Of a stretch of DNA of 64,000 nt, positions 29,693-60,768 are shown in pieces. The DNA lies in the NCBI GenBank assembly GCA_036679405.1, contig JAVBVZ010000037.1, positions 18,236-82,235 on the forward strand, read 5' to 3'. A program made the translations under genes and the position numbers. This DNA is from Christensenellaceae bacterium (lineage in GTDB: Bacteria; Bacillota; Clostridia; Christensenellales; Christensenellaceae). The number at the start of each line of letters is the position of its first letter. Positions within the stretch are counted from its first letter, which is position 1. The notes beneath the pieces were generated by a model, which saw nothing but the letters and a program-made list of their open reading frames with translations, did not search any database and was not told where the DNA came from.

Positions 29693-29705
29693 GCTGGTCG
29701 GGGTG
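29688..29705. repeat. 18-bp direct repeat copy 2 (attR-like), overlapping the tRNA-Pro 3' end
   Basis: TTTTTGCTGGTCGGGGTG is identical to 28015-28032. Confidence 0.75.
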
Positions 29706-29771
29706 ACAAGATTTGAACTTGCGACCTCTTACTCCCGAAGCAAGCGCGCTACCAAACTGCGCTACACCCCG
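29695..29771 (-). tRNA. tRNA-Pro (anticodon CGG), CCA encoded
   Basis: Hand-folded cloverleaf: acceptor CGGGGTG/CACCCCG, D arm GCGC/GCGC, anticodon stem CTTGC/GTAAG with loop TTCGGGA, T loop TTCAAAT. 77 nt. Confidence 0.9.
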
Positions 29772-52826: not shown

Positions 52827-52903
52827 GGAGGCATAGCTCAGCTGGTTAGAGTACTTGCTTGACATGCAAGGGGTCACTGGTTCAAGTCCAGTTGTCTCCA
52901 CCA
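52827..52903 (+). tRNA. tRNA-Val (anticodon GAC), CCA encoded
   Basis: Hand-folded: acceptor GGAGGCA/TGTCTCC, anticodon stem CTTGC/GCAAG with loop TTGACAT, T arm ACTGG-TTCAAGT-CCAGT. 77 nt. Confidence 0.9.
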
Positions 52904-54162: not shown

Positions 54163-55530
54163 ATGACAAAATCAAAAAAATTATTGGCTTTAGGATGCGT
54201 AATTGCACTCATTCTTACCATAGCAACAAGTTGCAGCACAACGGCTGCAACGGATACGGCATCCTCATCAGCCACATCCACAGCAGCCGAAACAACGCAA
54301 ACGGAACAGGCGGACGCCATGTCCCAGGACGCACCGCCCGACGGCGGCGGTTCGAGCACAGTGGCTACCGGGTCGGGGGCTTATGTGCTTTCTGATGAAG
54401 AAACTCTCAGCGGTGACACATATACTTCCACCAATGAGGATGAAAACGCTATCCGCGCCGAAGGCGATGTAACGGCTACTCTGGAAGACGTTGCGGTCGA
54501 GAAAACGGGCGGAGATGCTTCCAGTAGCGATGCAAGCAGTTTTTACGGCCTCAACGCGGCCATACTAGCTTTGGACGGTGCCACGCTCAATATCACCGGC
54601 GGTACGGTCACCGCAACGGCAGAAGGAGCAAACGGCGTATTTGCATATGACGGTGCGACCATCAACATTGCCGGAACAACAATAAGCGTTTCCGGCGGAA
54701 ATGCAGGCGGTATCGAAGTCGCCGGCGGCGGCACCATGGTTGCAACAGACCTGACCGTCAATTCGGTCGTAAAAGCCGCTATACGAAGTGACCGCGGCGG
54801 CGGCACAATGATTGTGGACGGCGGAACCTATACAACCGGCGGCAGTTCAGGCGCCCCGGCCGTTTACAGCACTGCGGATATTACCGTCAGCAATGCGACC
54901 CTGACCGCCAATGATTCCGAAGCAATCGTTGTGGAAGGTCTGAATTCCGTGACCCTGACCGACTGTGATGTTATGGGAAATATGTCCGGCACTTACGGGG
55001 ATGAAAGCGGAGAGAACATCCACAACGTCATGCTGTATCAAAGCATGTCGGGTGACGCGGAAAAAGGCACCAGCTCTTTCACCATGACGGGCGGCACCTT
55101 GGTATCCCAAAACGGCGACATGTTCTATATCACCAATACCGACAGCATCGTCACACTGAGCGGCGTGGAAATGACGATGGCCGACGGCACTAATCTGCTC
55201 GTAGTGGCAGGCAATGACGGTGAACGGGGTTGGGGAACAGCCGGTTCCAATGGCGGCATCTGCAGCTTCAATCTCTCGGCCCAGACCGCAGAAGGCGACA
55301 TTACGGTAGACGATATCTCGCAGCTCTCCATGTCCATCGCGGATTCTTCTTCCTACACCGGCGCGATCAATACGGACGGCACCACAGCGGCAGCCCTCTC
55401 TGTCACATTGGATTCCAGCAGCACCTGGACCCTCACCGGAGACAGCTATATCACAGAATTCAACGGCAGCATGGATAATGTTGTAACCAACGGCTATACA
55501 TTATATGTAGGCGGCACGGCAATGAACTGA
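54163..55530 (+). CDS. Thr/Gly-rich beta-helix-like surface lipoprotein
   Basis: Lipobox ATSC. Repeated GGT.T..G / G.T.N..G.T strands typical of right-handed beta-helix proteins. AGGAGG RBS. Confidence 0.6.
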   Translation: MTKSKKLLALGCVIALILTIATSCSTTAATDTASSSATSTAAETTQTEQADAMSQDAPPDGGGSSTVATGSGAYVLSDEETLSGDTYTSTNEDENAIRAEGDVTATLEDVAVEKTGGDASSSDASSFYGLNAAILALDGATLNITGGTVTATAEGANGVFAYDGATINIAGTTISVSGGNAGGIEVAGGGTMVATDLTVNSVVKAAIRSDRGGGTMIVDGGTYTTGGSSGAPAVYSTADITVSNATLTANDSEAIVVEGLNSVTLTDCDVMGNMSGTYGDESGENIHNVMLYQSMSGDAEKGTSSFTMTGGTLVSQNGDMFYITNTDSIVTLSGVEMTMADGTNLLVVAGNDGERGWGTAGSNGGICSFNLSAQTAEGDITVDDISQLSMSIADSSSYTGAINTDGTTAAALSVTLDSSSTWTLTGDSYITEFNGSMDNVVTNGYTLYVGGTAMN

Positions 55531-55648
55531 CAAATGATGAAACATTCTTTTACAGAGTGTTTCTGAAAATAAAAAGAGACCTAATAGGTCTCTTTTTATT
55601 TTTTATGTTTTAAACTTTCAGAAATTTCTTATACGCCAGAGTACTTTC

Positions 55649-55677
55649 TTGATTTTTTAAAAAAATCATGTTAGAAT
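55649..55677 (+). promoter_or_regulatory. extended -10 promoter of the methyltransferase/rSAM operon
   Basis: TTGATT-17 nt-(TGt)TAGAAT. Confidence 0.6.
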
Positions 55678-55696
55678 ATACCCCACCGGGGTATAT
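55676..55696. promoter_or_regulatory. perfect palindromic operator, CsoR-family type
   Basis: ATATACCCC-ACC-GGGGTATAT (9-bp arms) overlaps the -10. A related box is at 60434-60454. Confidence 0.6.
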
Positions 55697-55729
55697 ATAG
55701 GATATGATAGAGAAAGGATCCATATACAT

Positions 55730-56368
55730 ATGCACTCAACAATACAAAAAAGATACTCGCAATCCAGCGTTCAAAGCGATGCCCTGAGCTGCGGGGCAAA
55801 TGTCGAGCATCTCAAAATCAAATCTGGTGAAACCGTTTTGGATCTGGGCTGCGGCGGTGGCGCGGAAACAATTCTTGCCGCCCGGACTGCCGGTCCGGCC
55901 GGGCTGGCTGTCGGACTGGATCTAACGCCTTCTATGGTTGAGCTGGCCAAGAAAAACGCCAAAAAAGCCGGTGTATTCAACGCAGAATTTATTACCGGAG
56001 ATATTGAAAACCTTCCCTTCGCAGATGAAATGTTTGACGCCGTCATCAGCAACTGCGTTATCAACCATGCAAAAAACAAAGAAAAAGTTTACCGGGAAAT
56101 CATGCGCGTGCTGAAAAGCGGCGGGCGGTTTGTCGTGTCGGACGCCGTCACAAAATACCCCCTCCCCCCAGAAGTAAAAAACGACCCGGAAGCCTGGGCG
56201 CAGTGCTTTGGCGGTTCGATTACCAAGGAAGAATATTTTGCAAGCATCCGGGCAGCCGGCTTTTCCAGGGTCGATTTGGTCAACAGCAGAGAATATATTA
56301 AAAACGGTTATGACTTTCTAAGTCTGACTATAAAAGCAACCAAAGGCTTACAGAAGGAGGTGAAATAA
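55730..56368 (+). CDS. ArsM-like class I SAM-dependent methyltransferase
   Basis: ETVLDLGCGGG (motif I), DAVISNCVINH, and CFGG Cys positions reminiscent of arsenite methyltransferases. Short at 212 aa. Confidence 0.7.
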   Translation: MHSTIQKRYSQSSVQSDALSCGANVEHLKIKSGETVLDLGCGGGAETILAARTAGPAGLAVGLDLTPSMVELAKKNAKKAGVFNAEFITGDIENLPFADEMFDAVISNCVINHAKNKEKVYREIMRVLKSGGRFVVSDAVTKYPLPPEVKNDPEAWAQCFGGSITKEEYFASIRAAGFSRVDLVNSREYIKNGYDFLSLTIKATKGLQKEVK

Positions 56369-56475
56369 TGAAGAAAGTAACAAAAAAAGAAGGCGCAAAA
56401 TGCTGCCAGGCAACGTTTACAACGGCGCAATGCTGTTCTAAATCCTCAAAAATCGTAGCAGGTTGCCACAATTAA
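56368..56475 (+). CDS. 35-aa Cys-rich peptide (not in ORF track), candidate rSAM substrate
   Basis: MKKVTKKEGAKCCQATFTTAQCCSKSSKIVAGCHN. GGAGG is 7 nt upstream, and the ATG overlaps the upstream stop (TAATG). Confidence 0.6.
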   Translation: MKKVTKKEGAKCCQATFTTAQCCSKSSKIVAGCHN

Positions 56476-56521
56476 TTTGCACTCTAAAAAACCTTACGGC
56501 TTTTAGGGTAACCCTGAAAAA

Positions 56522-56546
56522 GGAGGCGGCGCAAAATGCCGCCTCC
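56522..56546 (+). other. GC-rich stem-loop between peptide ORF and rSAM gene
   Basis: GGAGGCGGC-GCAAAAT-GCCGCCTCC (9-bp stem), followed by an A-run rather than a T-run on the plus strand. Confidence 0.65.
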
Positions 56547-56569
56547 AAAAAAATATTTGGGAGAATACA

Positions 56570-58702
56570 ATGATACAGGCAAAAAACAATATCATTATAA
56601 AAATAGAAGAAAAAAATGAATACGCCATTTTAAACCCCGTGTCCGGCAGTTTTGACCTTATGGGGCAAAAAGAATATGATTCTTTGCAAAAAACCGAATC
56701 CCTTCCAAAATCAGACCCTGCGCTTGCAGAATATCTTTTGGAACGCGGTTATGCGTATAACACACCGGATGAACAGGAAATGGCCATTGCCCGTGCATAC
56801 GAAGAATTTCAGAAAGAAACGGCGGCCTCTCCCGTGCAGCTGATGCTGGTACCTACCTACGGATGCAACCTGGCCTGCACGTATTGCTTTCAGCATGGAA
56901 TAGAAGAACAACGCGCCCTTATATCCAAAGATACCGTTGACGCTTTCTTTGCCTACGCCAAAGATAATTTTTCACTGGCCGCGCAAAAGCCGTTTGTCAC
57001 CCTGTTCGGCGGTGAACCGCTGGTAAGCGCGCCTGCCCAAAGGGAAATCATCTCATATATTGTTGATGGATGTGCAAAAGCGGGATATGAAATTGCCGCC
57101 GTGACCAACGGGTACGACTTTGCGGACTATATAGATATTCTTAAAAAAGCAAAAATCAAGGAGATCCAGTTTACCCTGGACGGCAGCCGGCCGGTACATG
57201 ACAGCCGCAGGGCCACCGTCAACCATAAAGGTACGTTTGACCGGGTTGTTGCGGGCATTGAAGCTGCTGTCCAAAACGGAATTCCTGTAAATCTGCGTAC
57301 AGTGGTGGATATCGACAATATTGAAGATCTGGTGAACCTTGCCGAATTTTTGGATAACAAAGGGTGGCTTGACCTTCCGCCCGAATTATTTAAAACCCAA
57401 ATCGGACGAAATTATGAACTTTTTGAGTGCTATGCCAAACCCCAGCACCTGCTGTCCGAGGTTGAACTTTGGAGCCGTATTTCCGCACTCTCAAAAACGC
57501 ATACCATTCTCGCCAAATTTCACCGTCCTGATTTCAAAGGGATACGGCATATTGTAGATACCGGTGAAATGTACATGGCTTCATTTGATACCTGTCCTGC
57601 AGCAAAAACGGAATGGGTTTTTGACCTTCACGGAAAAATATACGGTTGTACCGCAAGCTGCGGACGTGAAGAGTATCTGCTGGGCACCTATTGGCCCAAA
57701 GTACAGCTGAACAAAGAAGTGATTGAAAGCTGGCAATGCCGGGATGTGCATTCGATCGCAGCATGCAAAGACTGTAAATACGACGTGATCTGCGGAGGCG
57801 GCTGCGGAGTGGTAGCAGCCAATCATCATGGTGGAGACCCTCTGACGCCGGACTGCCGTCCTATTCAGGAACTTCTTGAAATCGGTGTCAACCATTACAG
57901 CGAAGACCTTACTTCCATGGCCGAGGGAACCGCTCCCACTGAAATCCCGTCTTGCGACTGTGGCGCCTCTGCGGCCCATACATCCGGGTGTGCAATCTGC
58001 GGAAAAGAACTGGTTTATTCAGATACGCCCGCCGAACAGGTCTGCATGATCTGCGGAAAAAAGCAACGCGCATATATCTCCTGCCCCTCCGGACATTACG
58101 TATGTGACGAATGTCACGGCGCGGATATTATAACGCAGGCACAGAATCTTTTGGCGGCAAGCCGGGACCAAGATCCCGTCAGCCTTGCACAAAAGGTGTT
58201 CTCGCTGCCCGCTCTTAAAATGCATGGTCCGGAATACCACAGCCTGGTGCCTGCCATTTTGGTTACAGCCGCACAAAACGCCTCCGGGGAAAAGAACATC
58301 CCGCAAATTGCGGAAGCGCTCTCGCGCGGCCGCGACTTTAAGGGAGGAAGCTGTGGCCTGTACGGCGTATGCGGCGCAGCCGCGGGCGCAGGGATCGCTT
58401 ATTCCGTTTTAAGCCGCGCCACCTCCATGAAAGGACGGGAACGCAGCGGCGCGAACGAAATTGCCGGCAAGGCACTGATTGCAATCAGCGCGAATGTCGG
58501 CCCAAGATGCTGCAAACGCGAAGCCGTTACTACCATCCAATCATTCGCCCAAAGCACGCCGTATTTTGAAGATGTGCAAATAACAGATTATGTCTGCAGC
58601 CAATCAGCGCAAAACAGGGACTGTATCGGCACAGCCTGCCCTTTCTTTCAGGCAGTATCTGCCGCCGTTTCCCAAGAAGATGCCTTGAAAGCCGCAGTCT
58701 GA
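56570..58702 (+). CDS. radical SAM/SPASM enzyme with N-terminal peptide-binding-like extension and C-terminal Cys-rich domain
   Basis: C99-x3-C103-x2-C106 (CNLACTYC). SPASM: C342-x13-G-x4-C360 and C399-x2-C-x5-C-x3-C412. Residues ~455-710 carry 16 further Cys, including CxxC pairs and GVCGAAAGAG. Confidence 0.85.
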   Translation: MIQAKNNIIIKIEEKNEYAILNPVSGSFDLMGQKEYDSLQKTESLPKSDPALAEYLLERGYAYNTPDEQEMAIARAYEEFQKETAASPVQLMLVPTYGCNLACTYCFQHGIEEQRALISKDTVDAFFAYAKDNFSLAAQKPFVTLFGGEPLVSAPAQREIISYIVDGCAKAGYEIAAVTNGYDFADYIDILKKAKIKEIQFTLDGSRPVHDSRRATVNHKGTFDRVVAGIEAAVQNGIPVNLRTVVDIDNIEDLVNLAEFLDNKGWLDLPPELFKTQIGRNYELFECYAKPQHLLSEVELWSRISALSKTHTILAKFHRPDFKGIRHIVDTGEMYMASFDTCPAAKTEWVFDLHGKIYGCTASCGREEYLLGTYWPKVQLNKEVIESWQCRDVHSIAACKDCKYDVICGGGCGVVAANHHGGDPLTPDCRPIQELLEIGVNHYSEDLTSMAEGTAPTEIPSCDCGASAAHTSGCAICGKELVYSDTPAEQVCMICGKKQRAYISCPSGHYVCDECHGADIITQAQNLLAASRDQDPVSLAQKVFSLPALKMHGPEYHSLVPAILVTAAQNASGEKNIPQIAEALSRGRDFKGGSCGLYGVCGAAAGAGIAYSVLSRATSMKGRERSGANEIAGKALIAISANVGPRCCKREAVTTIQSFAQSTPYFEDVQITDYVCSQSAQNRDCIGTACPFFQAVSAAVSQEDALKAAV

Positions 58703-58732
58703 AATATTTAAGATAAAGAAAGGATCAAAACT

Positions 58733-60013
58733 ATGAGCGACAAAATCACCTATATAGACGGCGCAGAATTTGAAAACGCCGTCCTGAAATCCAATCTTCC
58801 GGTTATTGTGGATTTTTTTTCAGACGAATGCCCTCCCTGCGAAGTGCTTGCGCCTATTTTTGAAAAAATGGCCGAAAAATACGGAGAGCATATCCGGTTC
58901 ATAAAAATCAAGCGGGAAGAAAATAAGGAATTCGCCAAATCCCTGAATGTTTCAGGCAGTCCGACCGTCCTGTTTTTCAAAAACGGCCGGGAGATCGGCT
59001 CACGCCTCAGCGGATTTATGTCCAAACCGCAGGTGCGGCAGGCTATTGAGGATATTTTGGGCGACATTCTTCCCAAAGAACCCATTTCACGCATTGATTG
59101 CGACGTCCTCATTCTGGGCGCCGGCGCAGCCGGCCTCTCTGCTGCAATTTATGCCGCCCGCGCAAAGATGAACACCGTGATCGTAGATGAAAGCGTTCCG
59201 GGCGGCCAAACCGCCTCCACCTACCACATCGCAAACTATCCCGGCACTCCGGGCATGGTGCGCGGCCGGGAAATTATAGAAAACATGCGCAAGCAGGCTC
59301 TTTCCTTTGGCACACGGATAGACGACCTGAAAGAAATTGCAAAAGTAGACCTGAAAAGCAAAATTAAATATGTACTGACCGAAGACACGGAATACTATTC
59401 CAAATCCGTTATTATCGCTTCCGGCGCCAAGCCGCGCGCGCTGCCCGCAATGGGCGCCGACGAATGCAAAGGCCGCGGCGTTCATTACTGCGCTACCTGC
59501 GACGGTTCCATGTATCAGGATCGGTGTATCGTTGTAGTCGGCGGCGGAAATTCTGCGGTGGAAGAAGCCGTATTTTTAAGTAAATACGCAAAAGAACTAA
59601 CGCTAATTCATCAGTTCGATAATTTTCAGGCCTCACAAACCGCACAGGAAGCCCTCTTCAACAACCCAAAAATCAAAGTGGTCTGGGATTCGGAAGTCCG
59701 TAAAGTCAACGGCATAGGGCACGCTCTGGACAGCGTTGAAATAGAGAATATAAAAACAAAAGAATGTTCTGTCCTTCCTACCGAAGGCGCGTTTGTTTAC
59801 ATCGGCACCCAGCCCATGTCGGATATGTTTGCCGGTCAGGTTGAACTGGACAAATACGGTTATGTGAAGGCGTCCGAAGATACACAGACAAATCTTGAGG
59901 GCGTATTCGCTGCCGGCGATATCCGCACCAAACCCATTCGCCAGGTTGTTACCGCCGCTTCAGACGGCGCCGTTGCAGGGATTATGGCAGAACGGTATGT
60001 AGCCGGACTGTAA
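58733..60013 (+). CDS. thioredoxin(CPPC)::thioredoxin-reductase-like flavoprotein fusion
   Basis: N-terminal Trx fold VIVDFFSDECPPCE. Then GAGAAGLSAAIYAAR, redox CATC, GGGNSAVEEA and GDIR. HQFDNFQ sits where HRRxxxR is expected. Confidence 0.85.
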   Translation: MSDKITYIDGAEFENAVLKSNLPVIVDFFSDECPPCEVLAPIFEKMAEKYGEHIRFIKIKREENKEFAKSLNVSGSPTVLFFKNGREIGSRLSGFMSKPQVRQAIEDILGDILPKEPISRIDCDVLILGAGAAGLSAAIYAARAKMNTVIVDESVPGGQTASTYHIANYPGTPGMVRGREIIENMRKQALSFGTRIDDLKEIAKVDLKSKIKYVLTEDTEYYSKSVIIASGAKPRALPAMGADECKGRGVHYCATCDGSMYQDRCIVVVGGGNSAVEEAVFLSKYAKELTLIHQFDNFQASQTAQEALFNNPKIKVVWDSEVRKVNGIGHALDSVEIENIKTKECSVLPTEGAFVYIGTQPMSDMFAGQVELDKYGYVKASEDTQTNLEGVFAAGDIRTKPIRQVVTAASDGAVAGIMAERYVAGL

Positions 60014-60060
60014 GAGGACCCCTTCTTTTAATCCCGGGCAGCCTTAAAAGCTGTCCAATA

Positions 60061-60087
60061 AAAAAGGAGCAAAAGCTCCTTTTTTTA
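60061..60087. terminator. bidirectional terminator between convergent operon and repressor gene
   Basis: AAAAAGGAGC-AAAA-GCTCCTTTTT. Confidence 0.8.
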
Positions 60088-60135
60088 TTGGAAAAATCCA
60101 AAAATTATACCGATTAAAAAATTCTTTTTATCGTA

Positions 60136-60420
60136 TCACTCTGAAAATTTCATAAAACTTTTCATTGCATTTGCAAAATCCGCCAGGGATTTATCTTTAT
60201 CATCACTTAAAGCCGCGTTCTGAATACACGTCATCGAATATTTTTCCAGTATCAGGCTGCCCACCTTCCCTATGGCTGCGCGGACTGCCGAAACCTGCGT
60301 CAGAATATCTATACACGTTTTGTCGTCACCTATCATCCTTTGAATCCCCTTGACCTGCCCTTCAATGCGCCGCAGACGCCGCAAGAGGTCTTCTTTGGTT
60401 TCCAAGCTTTGTTTATCCAC
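60136..60420 (-). CDS. CsoR/RcnR/CstR-family (DUF156) transcriptional repressor
   Basis: LLRRLRRIEGQVKGIQRMI...CIDILTQVSAV. GTG start with GGGAGG RBS. Cys36, Tyr61, Cys65. Confidence 0.85.
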   Translation of the reverse strand: MDKQSLETKEDLLRRLRRIEGQVKGIQRMIGDDKTCIDILTQVSAVRAAIGKVGSLILEKYSMTCIQNAALSDDKDKSLADFANAMKSFMKFSE

Positions 60421-60433
60421 TTTGTCTCACCTC

Positions 60434-60454
60434 CCATACCACACAGGGGTATAT
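60434..60454. promoter_or_regulatory. operator-like box in the repressor's own promoter
   Basis: Minus strand ATATACCCC-TGT-GTGGTATGG. One arm is identical to the 55676 box and the other matches 6 of 9. Sits 4 nt downstream of the -10. Confidence 0.5.
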
Positions 60455-60458
60455 GTTT

Positions 60459-60487
60459 ATTATATACAAAACATACTTTCAAATCAA
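60459..60487 (-). promoter_or_regulatory. promoter of the CsoR-family gene
   Basis: Minus strand TTGATT-17 nt-TATAAT. Confidence 0.6.
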
Positions 60488-60606: not shown

Positions 60607-60768
60607 TTATTCCGTAGGCTCAAACTGATCTTTGTCCGCAAAACAAACCGGGCAGGTCCAGTCTTCGGGCAGCTTTTCAAAAGGCGTGCCCGCCTCTATC
60701 CCGTTATCCGGATCTCCTTCGGCTGGATCATAGACATAACCACATGGCACACAAACATATTTTTGCAT
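60607..60768 (-). CDS. rubredoxin (53 aa, not in ORF track)
   Basis: [53 protein letters not shown], with CxxCG and CPxC motifs. AAGGAGG RBS. Confidence 0.9.

Follow-up and report, generated by a model that had tools for sequence, protein, structure and literature searches.

A widespread four-gene cassette of anaerobic bacteria couples a conserved Cys-rich peptide to an ArsM-like methyltransferase, a putative radical SAM peptide maturase and a thioredoxin reductase fusion

A stretch of 64,000 nucleotides from a Christensenellaceae genome (assembly GCA_036679405.1, contig JAVBVZ010000037.1; the whole of it is referred to here as the window) contains an operon in which an ArsM-like, S-adenosylmethionine (SAM)-dependent methyltransferase, a 35-residue Cys-rich peptide, a 710-residue radical SAM (rSAM)/SPASM protein and a thioredoxin-thioredoxin reductase fusion (Trx::TrxR) are encoded in series (Table 1). 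Comparison with related loci establishes that this cassette is a widespread four-gene module of anaerobic bacteria, of which the peptide is the best-conserved part. The reading we prefer, to which we give a probability of about 0.45, is that the rSAM enzyme matures a Cys peptide which stays inside the cell and either donates Cys to the ArsM-type methyltransferase as its partner or serves as its substrate, and that the dedicated reductase recycles this peptide; judged from sequence, the module is best read as stress-inducible, and the substrate of the methyltransferase may be a metalloid. An earlier note on this DNA had picked out the promoter overlapped by a perfect palindrome, the 212-residue ArsM-like protein, a 9-bp GC hairpin after the small open reading frame (ORF), the CNLACTYC motif and textbook SPASM domain of the rSAM protein, the thioredoxin(CPPC)::TrxR-like fusion as last gene, and a convergent CsoR-family gene with a related operator in its own promoter; all of these were found where it had placed them, and the points on which its account needed changing are given below with the results that bear on them.

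The cassette is defined by strong synteny. Among 97 distinct peptide-seeded loci, each component being counted over those loci with enough flanking sequence, the methyltransferase gene is adjacent and upstream of the peptide gene in 81 of 84, the rSAM gene is adjacent and downstream in 68 of 69, and Trx::TrxR is present in 50 of 51, so that the co-occurrence of small ORF, ArsM-like gene, rSAM gene and reductase gene which the earlier note had proposed to look for is borne out. It had listed a CsoR-like gene with these four, and this proves to be accessory rather than core, occurring in only 5 of 49 loci. A small ORF without conservation in syntenic loci would, by the earlier note, have told against its proposal; the peptide is conserved in essentially every related locus. 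Other components are less regular: DUF5714, fused or separate, is found in 32 of 49 loci, a previously unnoticed 48-residue four-Cys protein in 15 of 49, DUF1847 in 7 of 49 and a MarR gene in 3 of 68. Twelve genome loci, from Clostridia, Syntrophomonas, Carboxydocellales and an Acidobacteriota metagenome-assembled genome (MAG), keep the order methyltransferase, peptide, rSAM, Trx::TrxR wherever the contig allows, the exception being locus L011, in which the Trx::TrxR gene lies upstream of the methyltransferase gene. Taken together, the relatives known from genomes or as named proteins belong to Clostridia, Syntrophomonadaceae, Carboxydocellales, the Acidobacteriota MAG, Humimicrobiaceae and Deltaproteobacteria, and of the first 600 pattern matches in one metagenome scan, for which nothing but the peptide core served as query, at least 211 were confirmed as loci.

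The peptide has a simple layout: it begins with a basic N-terminus, may then carry a CC pair, and closes with an invariant core, AQCC[SA]KxSK[IV]VAGCH[DN]-stop. A profile search recovered 119 standalone homologues of 31-69 residues, every one annotated 'hypothetical' and a few of them from cultured hosts (Carboxydocella thermautotrophica, Zhaonella formicivorans, Thermohydrogenium kirishiense); no Pfam or NCBIfam family matches the peptide. The homologues form two clades, AQCCSK... (SK) and AQCCAK... (AK), which have in common the basic start MKxhxKK and the nearly invariant core A-Q-C-C-[SA]-K-x-[ST]-[KN]-x-[VI]-[AV]-G-C-H-[DN]-stop. The conserved feature is CC...C, three Cys within a 17-residue C-terminal core. 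Of the mini-peptide with a CC-CC-C pattern claimed earlier, the Cys-containing ORF coupled to the methyltransferase gene through TAATG stands, and the five-Cys pattern is not what is conserved, the first CC pair being variable or absent across loci. The peptide is single-copy in each locus. We considered and rejected the view that it is a detached piece of the methyltransferase, as it has its own ribosome-binding site and start codon, lies downstream of that gene and is fused to nothing in any of the 119 homologues.

The 710-residue protein joins an N-terminal domain resembling the recognition element (RRE) of enzymes that modify RiPPs (ribosomally synthesised peptides bearing post-translational modifications) to an rSAM/SPASM core, a Zn-ribbon-like module and DUF5714. 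The earlier note had compared its N-terminal extension with the RRE-like N-termini of peptide-modifying SPASM enzymes, and this is supported by the AlphaFold2 model (predicted local distance difference test score, pLDDT, 85.8 for the full chain), in which residues 8-59 form three strands then three helices at a pLDDT of 88-93 throughout the block bar one loop, and by the CefB profile alignment, which begins at residue 4; the resemblance is one of structure, and Pfam PqqD is not matched. Both the CX3CX2C signature (C99-N-L-A-C103-T-Y-C106) and the seven SPASM Cys (C342-x12-G355-x4-C360; C399-x2-C402-x5-C408-x3-C412; C429) are invariant in 64 homologues. The top Foldseek match is CteB (5WHY/5WGG), an RRE-bearing thioether synthase, aligned over ~480 columns and essentially the whole target (E 3e-15), and anSME, TigE, SuiB (RRE-bearing too, and matched along its full length), ChlB and SkfB are further solved relatives. 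Among NCBIfam families those nearest to the enzyme are without exception RiPP maturases, and each lies far under cutoff: CefB (NF038107) scores 137.6 against 600, TIGR04463 127 against 525, PapB (NF047865) 99.7 against 340 and ScfB (TIGR03974) 81.2 against 425, the short-form homologues of the enzyme falling likewise under the curated maturase cutoffs. Because of the RRE-like N-terminus, the CteB alignment and these nearest families, the rSAM enzyme looks like a peptide maturase.

What had been described as a ~250-residue Cys-rich tail is present and resolves into two Zn-ribbon-like CxxC pairs (C474/C477/C492/C495), followed by C505/H509/C512/C515/H516, and the named domain DUF5714. The first module is modelled as a β-hairpin and its residues are invariant; the tail model as a whole has a pLDDT of 89.6. 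Invariant residues of the all-alpha, Cys-rich DUF5714 are H552/E555/H557, C595, C601, C647-C648 (in RCCKRE), C676, C685 and C690, and a fold search of the PDB with the tail model brought up no solved structure related to it (the best Foldseek E was 1.3). At least 798 relatives of the fusion protein are named only 'DUF5714 domain-containing protein', and the Zn-ribbon-like module and DUF5714 travel together in standalone and fused proteins alike. We rejected DUF5714 as a core component: the maturases of the whole AK clade are short forms of 436-450 residues without it, it is missing also from loci L009, L010 and L012, and in Carboxydocella it is encoded by a separate gene ~2.4 kb downstream of the Trx::TrxR gene. 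It is accessory.

The methyltransferase is a class I SAM enzyme whose top NCBIfam match is the arsenite methyltransferase model NF008823 (222.6 bits; cutoff 263), with the alignment spanning profile positions 63-243 of 272 and leaving positions 1-62 unmatched. The catalytic set of CmArsM comprises Cys72, Cys174 and Cys224, which bind As(III), together with Cys44, on which the first methylation depends. Aligned to solved ArsM (4KW7/4FR0), the cassette enzyme has the class I SAM fold and places Cys21, Cys109 and Cys159 on Cys72, Cys174 and Cys224, and it starts ~20 residues before the Cys72 equivalent, so that no counterpart of Cys44 is present; all four of its Cys are invariant in 22 cassette methyltransferases. 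The likeness to ArsM/AS3MT thus extends to the fold, the Cys triad and the thioredoxin and thioredoxin reductase encoded alongside, Trx/TrxR being the established reductant of those enzymes. The difference is that the cassette protein is without ~60 N-terminal residues, the Cys44 equivalent among them, and without the ArsM C-terminal domain, and that it seems to draw a Cys pair either in trans from the peptide or from a CC insertion of its own. A full-length relative, P0264, has 'LCC' in the N-terminal segment that the cassette enzyme lacks, and this segment aligns with the first-Cys region of solved ArsM.

This exchange of Cys between the two partners is visible across the family. Where the upstream CC of the peptide is missing, the methyltransferase carries 'CC' three residues before its Cys72 equivalent (...SCCLSCGG...). 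Among 73 unique combinations the pair is on the peptide only in 40, on the methyltransferase only in 22, on both in 9 and on neither in 2 (Fisher p = 1.5e-9 overall, uncorrected for phylogeny; p = 0.003 within the AK clade), and the tree of the methyltransferase core runs from methyltransferase-only through both (L027, L081) to peptide-only (L086, L101). Since the ArsM Cys triad is kept, the Cys pair is traded and the methyltransferase gene lies on the peptide's side of the hairpin, the enzyme looks like a central partner of the peptide more than a tailoring enzyme. The earlier proposal, an rSAM enzyme and a methyltransferase acting on a Cys-rich peptide with a dedicated reductase, accordingly fits the architecture (RRE, CteB match, synteny) and is altered in this one respect.

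Relatives outside the cassette combine several of the same parts. The Zn-ribbon and DUF5714 module is found in ~990 clusters at 50% identity, mostly standalone proteins of ~240 residues; methyltransferase::DUF5714 fusions exist; and triple fusions of 1000-1080 residues (P0266, P0272 and P0260 among them), at least 375 in number and chiefly from Thermodesulfobacteriota, comprise rSAM, ArsM-type methyltransferase, CC-rich linker, Zn-ribbon and DUF5714, the methyltransferase domain scoring ~222 bits on NF008823 with its Cys triad kept. As these relatives fuse them in one chain, a joint action of the radical and ArsM-type enzymes with DUF5714 is predicted. We rejected the idea that the triple-fusion relatives share the cassette's peptide: neither the peptide nor Trx::TrxR was found near the triple-fusion genes at L108:8001-11132 and L110:8001-11126. 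The L108 gene sits between pgi and pentose-phosphate genes.

Trx::TrxR scores 335 bits on TIGR01292, against a cutoff of 343, and the active-site motifs C[PA]PC and CATC and the Gly motif GGGxxAxEEA, as expected of thioredoxin and its reductase, are conserved across 20 loci. In an alignment with solved TrxR, HQFDNFQ takes the place of the NADPH motif HRRxxxR in the window's protein, as it does in 6 other lineages, while the remaining lineages have HR-SxFRA; in the window the stretch LIHQFDNFQAS (59500-59560) is missing three NADPH-specifying Arg. Because HRRxxxR is not kept, the electron donor may be NADH or a small redox protein. In a Syntrophomonadaceae locus (L012:7467-7844) only a 125-residue thioredoxin is left, which ends in the last residues of the TrxR domain, and the loss of the reductase there looks like an internal deletion.

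The hairpin that follows the peptide gene is kept in position and variable in sequence: an ungapped stem, 8 bp or longer, lies within 70 nt of the peptide stop in 59 of 86 distinct loci, compared with 5 of 86 shuffled controls, and a T-tract follows the stem in 21 of the 59. It places methyltransferase and peptide on its 5' side and rSAM enzyme and reductase on its 3' side, and from sequence it is likely an attenuator or transcript stabiliser.

Control of the operon varies among lineages. In the window the promoter has 9 of 12 consensus matches in a consensus scan, with TG ahead of the -10, and the operator is of CsoR-family type, with a G/C tract between the arms of an AT-rich inverted repeat. 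Exact matches to ATACC-N7-GGTAT occur at only two sites in the 64 kb, the promoter of the methyltransferase operon and that of the convergent repressor gene, both thus having the inverted repeat with central G/C tract that is expected at promoters regulated by the CsoR/RcnR family; with one mismatch allowed there are 4 matches, a number that 0 of 100 shuffles attained. The copy in the repressor's own promoter suggests autoregulation. The repressor resembles CsoR and CstR in its family (PF02583, 93 bits), in keeping both Cys and in a G/C-tract operator placed over the promoter. It departs from CsoR in its fingerprint, Cys35/Tyr60/Cys64 instead of the Cu(I) ligand set Cys/His/Cys, and alignment to CsoR 4M1P puts Tyr at the His position, so that the fold is present and the Cu(I)-sensor ligands are incomplete. 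The cassette-linked homologues of L022, L028 and L030 retain EKYSMxC, so that Tyr replaces the Cu(I)-site His in all four such repressors, where CstR (7MQ1) has Asn; the window's repressor falls below the cutoff of all curated models (RicR, 74 against 175). Equivalent promoter and operator arrangements precede the methyltransferase genes of L001-L005, L008, L022 and others, and the operator motif lies within 330 nt 5' of that gene in 19 of 44 SK-clade loci, usually directly 3' of the -10 and even where the repressor gene is elsewhere, and in 0 of 27 AK-clade loci. Universal CsoR control is rejected, since the operator is missing from 25 of 44 SK-clade and 27 of 27 AK-clade promoters; control by a CsoR-like repressor is lineage-specific. 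The regulator genes adjoining the cassette in other lineages are of MarR, LysR or histidine kinase/sigma-54 type.

Table 1. Features of the operon and of the convergent repressor gene, with positions in the window
Feature	Position	Strand	Description
Sigma-70-type promoter	55649-55677	+	-35 TTGATT 55649-55654, 17-nt spacer, extended -10 TGtTAGAAT 55669-55677
Operator	55676-55696	.	perfect 9-3-9 palindrome ATATACCCC-ACC-GGGGTATAT; overlaps end of -10
ArsM-type class I SAM methyltransferase	55730-56368	+	212 aa, N-terminally short; NF008823 match
Cys-rich peptide	56368-56475	+	35 aa, MKKVTKKEGAKCCQATFTTAQCCSKSSKIVAGCHN; ATG overlaps methyltransferase stop (TAATG)
GC-rich stem-loop	56522-56546	+	GGAGGCGGCG-CAAAA-TGCCGCCTCC, 9-10 bp; between peptide and rSAM genes
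rSAM/SPASM::DUF5714 protein	56570-58702	+	710 aa; PF04055 and PF18978 both match
RRE-like N-terminal domain	56570-56839	+	aa 1-90; AlphaFold2 model, Foldseek, CefB profile
Radical SAM core and SPASM	56840-57919	+	C99-x3-C103-x2-C106; PF04055 82 bits
Zn-ribbon-like module	57977-58120	+	C474/C477/C492/C495, then C505/H509/C512/C515/H516
DUF5714	58145-58648	+	PF18978, 170.6 bits against gathering threshold 26.2; residues 526-693
Trx::TrxR	58733-60013	+	426 aa; thioredoxin (aa 1-107, CPPC; PF00085) and low-Mr thioredoxin reductase (aa 122-426, CATC; PF07992)
Terminator-like bidirectional hairpin	60060-60086	.	AAAAAAGGAGC-AAAA-GCTCCTTTTTTT; common to operon and repressor gene; read in the sequence, not in the hairpin scan list
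CsoR/RcnR-family repressor	60136-60420	-	94 aa; convergent to operon
Second operator	60436-60452	-	ATACCACACAGGGGTAT; between repressor -10 and start codon; listed inverted-repeat pair
Repressor promoter	60436-60487	-	-35 TTGATT 60487-60482, 17-nt spacer, -10 TATAAT 60464-60459

On our preferred reading a two-Cys CsoR-family repressor would, in this lineage, occupy the -10 palindrome and its own promoter, to be let go by a thiol-reactive signal other than Cu(I). Methyltransferase and peptide, whose genes overlap upstream of the hairpin, would be made together through translational coupling, with the hairpin reducing read-through into the enzyme genes. The RRE of the maturase would then bind the basic N-terminus of the peptide and radical chemistry would take place on the invariant core, an intramolecular thioether or related cross-link being, by family resemblance, the likeliest modification. 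The matured peptide would remain in the cell as Cys-donating partner or substrate of the methyltransferase, the Cys pair lost with the N-terminal segment of the enzyme coming from the peptide or from the CC insertion; the pattern is there in the alignments, and this is the meaning we would give it. By analogy with the use of Trx/TrxR by ArsM/AS3MT, Trx::TrxR would re-reduce disulfides of the peptide or the enzyme, and DUF5714, DUF1847 and the 48-residue four-Cys protein would serve as interchangeable Cys-rich helpers. The favoured methyl acceptor would be a thiolate-held soft metalloid or chalcogen, As(III) or Sb(III), possibly Se, Te or persulfide sulfur, and the main alternative acceptor a residue of the peptide.

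The core synteny, the near-invariant and unfused peptide, the maturase-like build of the rSAM enzyme, the ArsM triad, the trade-off, the fusions and the conserved hairpin all argue for this assignment, as do the operators at both promoters, the repressor's lack of the Cu(I) His ligand and the genomic setting, in which no export machinery recurs and the neighbours are thiol and metal handling proteins, with an ArsP_1 permease in 8 loci. Several observations weigh on the other side. The methyltransferase scores under the curated ArsM cutoff, and folds like that of ArsM are also met with in other settings that lack an explanation, selenoprotein fusions among them. Arsenic methylation alone requires no rSAM enzyme; ArsR, ArsC, Acr3 and ArsB are not recurrent near the cassette in ~90 loci, and the flanks are mostly housekeeping genes, unusual for arsenic detoxification. 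Because the regulators differ between lineages, being CsoR-type, MarR, LysR or histidine kinase/sigma-54, no single inducer is implied, and because the triple fusions occur without the peptide and Trx::TrxR, the peptide is not required for every version of the chemistry. The trade-off, though suggestive, rests on ~2-3 independent transitions, and phylogenetic inertia may account for it.

A conventional RiPP cluster would explain part of this organisation. In it the rSAM enzyme would cross-link the precursor in the manner of sactipeptides or ranthipeptides, the methyltransferase would carry out S-, O- or C-terminal methylation, the product would be secreted or act as a signal, and Trx::TrxR would merely keep the precursor Cys reduced. 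The likeness to the thioether maturase systems, CteB/CteA thermocellin, PapB ranthipeptides, SCIFF/ScfB and CefB, is close, with an N-terminal RRE, a CX3CX2C core, a seven-Cys SPASM domain and, adjoining the enzyme, a gene for a short Cys-rich peptide. That this gene lies directly 5' of the maturase gene and is followed by a hairpin is a feature of many RiPP operons, the nearest families of the enzyme are as noted maturases of this kind (CefB, TIGR04463, PapB, SCIFF), and LahSB, a peptide-C-terminal methyltransferase, is among the solved relatives of the methyltransferase (E 9e-15). With SCIFF the cassette further has in common a highly conserved peptide, frequent occurrence in anaerobic Firmicutes and the absence of an export partner. 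It differs from all of these systems, however, in a 17-residue core that matches no family, in the constant presence of an ArsM-type methyltransferase and Trx::TrxR and in the frequent fusion of the maturase to Zn-ribbon and DUF5714. The core of an antimicrobial RiPP is expected to diversify, whereas this one is near-invariant across phyla and has a single precursor copy per locus; clustering of the flanking ORFs of ~90 loci revealed no protease or exporter among the recurrent neighbours; and simple tailoring explains neither the invariant ArsM Cys triad nor the trading of the Cys pair, nor is a dedicated Trx::TrxR a known feature of RiPP clusters. We therefore regard a conventional RiPP cluster as unlikely.

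The dedicated reductase, which is essentially universal in the cassette, and the lack of recurrent export genes would be explained if the product were a redox cofactor derived from the peptide or a low-molecular-weight thiol of ribosomal origin, similar in role to glutathione, mycothiol or bacillithiol and in origin to PQQ or mycofactocin, with Trx::TrxR as the carrier's own reductase in anaerobes without glutathione. The cofactor precursors PqqA and MftA have an invariant C-terminal core. The cassette resembles the mycofactocin (MftA/B/C) and PQQ (PqqA/D/E) systems in its short precursor with such a core, in its RRE and rSAM/SPASM maturase, in having one precursor gene per locus and, we infer, in an intracellular product. 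Its hosts are anaerobic (Clostridia, Syntrophomonadaceae, Carboxydocella, Thermodesulfobacteriota-type MAGs), a TlpA-like redoxin is among its recurrent neighbours, rubredoxin or desulfoferrodoxin is encoded near some cassettes, and, as in the persulfide sensor CstR, both Cys of the repressor are there while the His ligand for Cu(I) is missing. It is distinct in lacking peptidase and flavoenzyme partners and in having a methyltransferase and a disulfide reductase. A cofactor of this kind gives no role to a universal ArsM-type methyltransferase with an intact metalloid-binding Cys triad, the rSAM::methyltransferase::DUF5714 fusions link the radical enzyme to the methyltransferase and not to the reductase, and the mycofactocin and PQQ maturase models are far under cutoff (TIGR03962, the mycofactocin rSAM model, 72 bits against 265 on L023). 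Such a cofactor or thiol is likewise improbable.

A bolder reading, in which the peptide is a ribosomally made thiol carrier that hands a soft metalloid or chalcogen (As, Sb, Se, Te, sulfane sulfur) to the truncated ArsM-type methyltransferase, is drawn by analogy, and we place it lower still; the peptide may then fill the role that glutathione conjugates have elsewhere. In its strongest version the rSAM enzyme may forge a carbon-metalloid or carbon-chalcogen bond on the peptide, for which ArsL and ArsS, in which a carbon radical attacks As(III), are the analogy.

No arsenic operon surrounds the cassette. The earlier note had stated that the window holds no arsR, arsB/acr3 or arsC, and none was found, by Pfam on either side of the 710-residue gene (~8.6 kb upstream, 7 kb downstream) or in the whole window by a rough scan with signature motifs, so that its statement stands within the reach of these limited checks; we rejected the cassette as an ars island, as no ars genes, and none of the ArsR, efflux pump and ArsC of an ars operon, recur in the flanks of ~90 loci. 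The one cassette neighbour with an arsenic connection is an ArsP_1 (PF03773) permease in 8 loci (L017:11479-12497, L007:1437-2411, L003, L008, L045, L054, L055 and L077), its genes full length or split in two halves, which in L017 stands directly downstream of the cassette. The least probable of the explanations considered is a plain arsenic or metalloid methylation-detoxification operon, with a short ArsM, Trx::TrxR as its usual reductant, an ArsD-like As(III) chaperone peptide, and the rSAM/DUF5714 protein as a passenger or as the maker of a small-molecule organoarsenical like ArsL/ArsS: the best match and Cys triad of the methyltransferase, the three thiolates of CC...C (compare Cys12/13/18 of ArsD) and the permease agree with it, but the regulator is of CsoR, MarR or LysR family and not ArsR, the rSAM enzyme is no passenger, being adjacent in 68 of 69 loci and equipped with an RRE, and it is of SPASM maturase type (CefB, TIGR04463, PapB), with no rSAM arsenic-family model in its top 25 NCBIfam matches.

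Beyond these components, the recurrent neighbours of the cassette are a second small methyltransferase (13 loci), the TlpA-like redoxin (11 loci), a Fer4_5 membrane protein (8 loci), DUF302 (7 loci, for example L100:10431-10832, directly downstream of the cassette in the AQCCAK clade), DUF1847 (7 loci), DUF6132 (4 loci) and DUF6951 (3 loci). The 48-residue family (...TEKEAELLRKSISHCLxTCKEGGxKDGCTDCAALExLLxRLP) has four Cys and one His, matches no Pfam or NCBIfam family and is usually encoded just 3' of the Trx::TrxR gene (L016:11544-11690, L025:9557-9712, L002, L003, L006, L008-L012, L018, L019, L022), with two copies in L005 (10518-10661 and 10836-10937); this window has no copy. Nine loci of the AQCCAK clade, including L078:5659-6093 (minus strand), encode a 144-residue protein with an IS1595-type transposase Zn-ribbon, divergent from the methyltransferase gene and ~160 nt upstream of it, which may be a domesticated regulator.

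Around the operon in the window, the gene upstream (54163-55530, plus strand) encodes a protein of 455 residues whose N-terminus resembles that of a lipoprotein and which includes a low-complexity stretch rich in Thr/Ala/Ser and a right-handed beta-helix (PF13229); it is followed by an 18-bp perfect hairpin terminator (55566-55602) and seems unrelated to the cassette. A rubredoxin gene (60607-60768, minus strand) and a cupin gene adjoin the repressor gene. At gathering threshold Rfam matched nothing in the 64 kb but two tRNA genes, at 52827-52900 (plus strand) and 29698-29771 (minus strand), and no riboswitch or other known RNA element was found near the operon by that search. With a GC content of 49% in the cassette and 47% in the window, recent horizontal acquisition is rejected.

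The nearest described combination of an ArsM-like methyltransferase with a Cys- or Sec-rich helper is found in selenoprotein fusions. The MbdU 'metal-binding double selenoprotein' and the ArsM/AhpD and ArsM/DUF2284 fusions (NF045648, NF041537, NF041536) are attributed to Haft & Tolstoy 2025 in the review PMC13188914, a table of which gives the MbdU motif as 'CU'; we think that this corresponds to the invariant CC (RCCKRE) of DUF5714. The MbdU model NF045648 aligns to the DUF5714 tail at positions 33-272 of 468 with 135.6 bits against a cutoff of 600, and the cassette methyltransferase matches the ArsM-fusion selenoprotein models at 157-164 bits. The cassette differs in these scores, far under cutoffs of 510-600, and in containing no selenocysteine, and the selenoprotein families are not reported together with a peptide, an rSAM/SPASM maturase or Trx::TrxR.

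The cassette was not recognised in the earlier note as a described system, and this judgement holds: among curated NCBIfam and Pfam models none covers the peptide, and with the rSAM enzyme or the methyltransferase none attains its cutoff; the searchable full-text literature returned nothing relevant on DUF5714, the operon, MbdU, the peptide motif or a combination of ArsM with SPASM or RiPP, and nothing on the system was found in the rSAM-RiPP compendium PMC10288494. The parts are of known kinds; their combination, the peptide family, the 48-residue family and the Cys-pair trade-off are absent from the curated families and the searchable literature.

The cassette is therefore an unnamed system of hundreds of loci whose parts are all annotated 'hypothetical' or 'DUF', and it provides a first functional handle on DUF5714 and on the large family of rSAM::ArsM::DUF5714 fusions. 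Its four genes, the 35 residues of its peptide and the existence of a host in culture, Carboxydocella thermautotrophica, in which the operator is present (L025), make it tractable. It joins radical SAM peptide maturation with ArsM-type thiol-dependent methylation, two fields so far unconnected. Should the peptide turn out to be a thiol carrier, or a partner, in the methylation of metalloids or sulfur, the way in which anaerobes without glutathione deal with such species would become visible; and should the rSAM enzyme join carbon to a metalloid or chalcogen on the peptide, its product would be the first organometalloid borne by a peptide, and Trx::TrxR would close the redox cycle.

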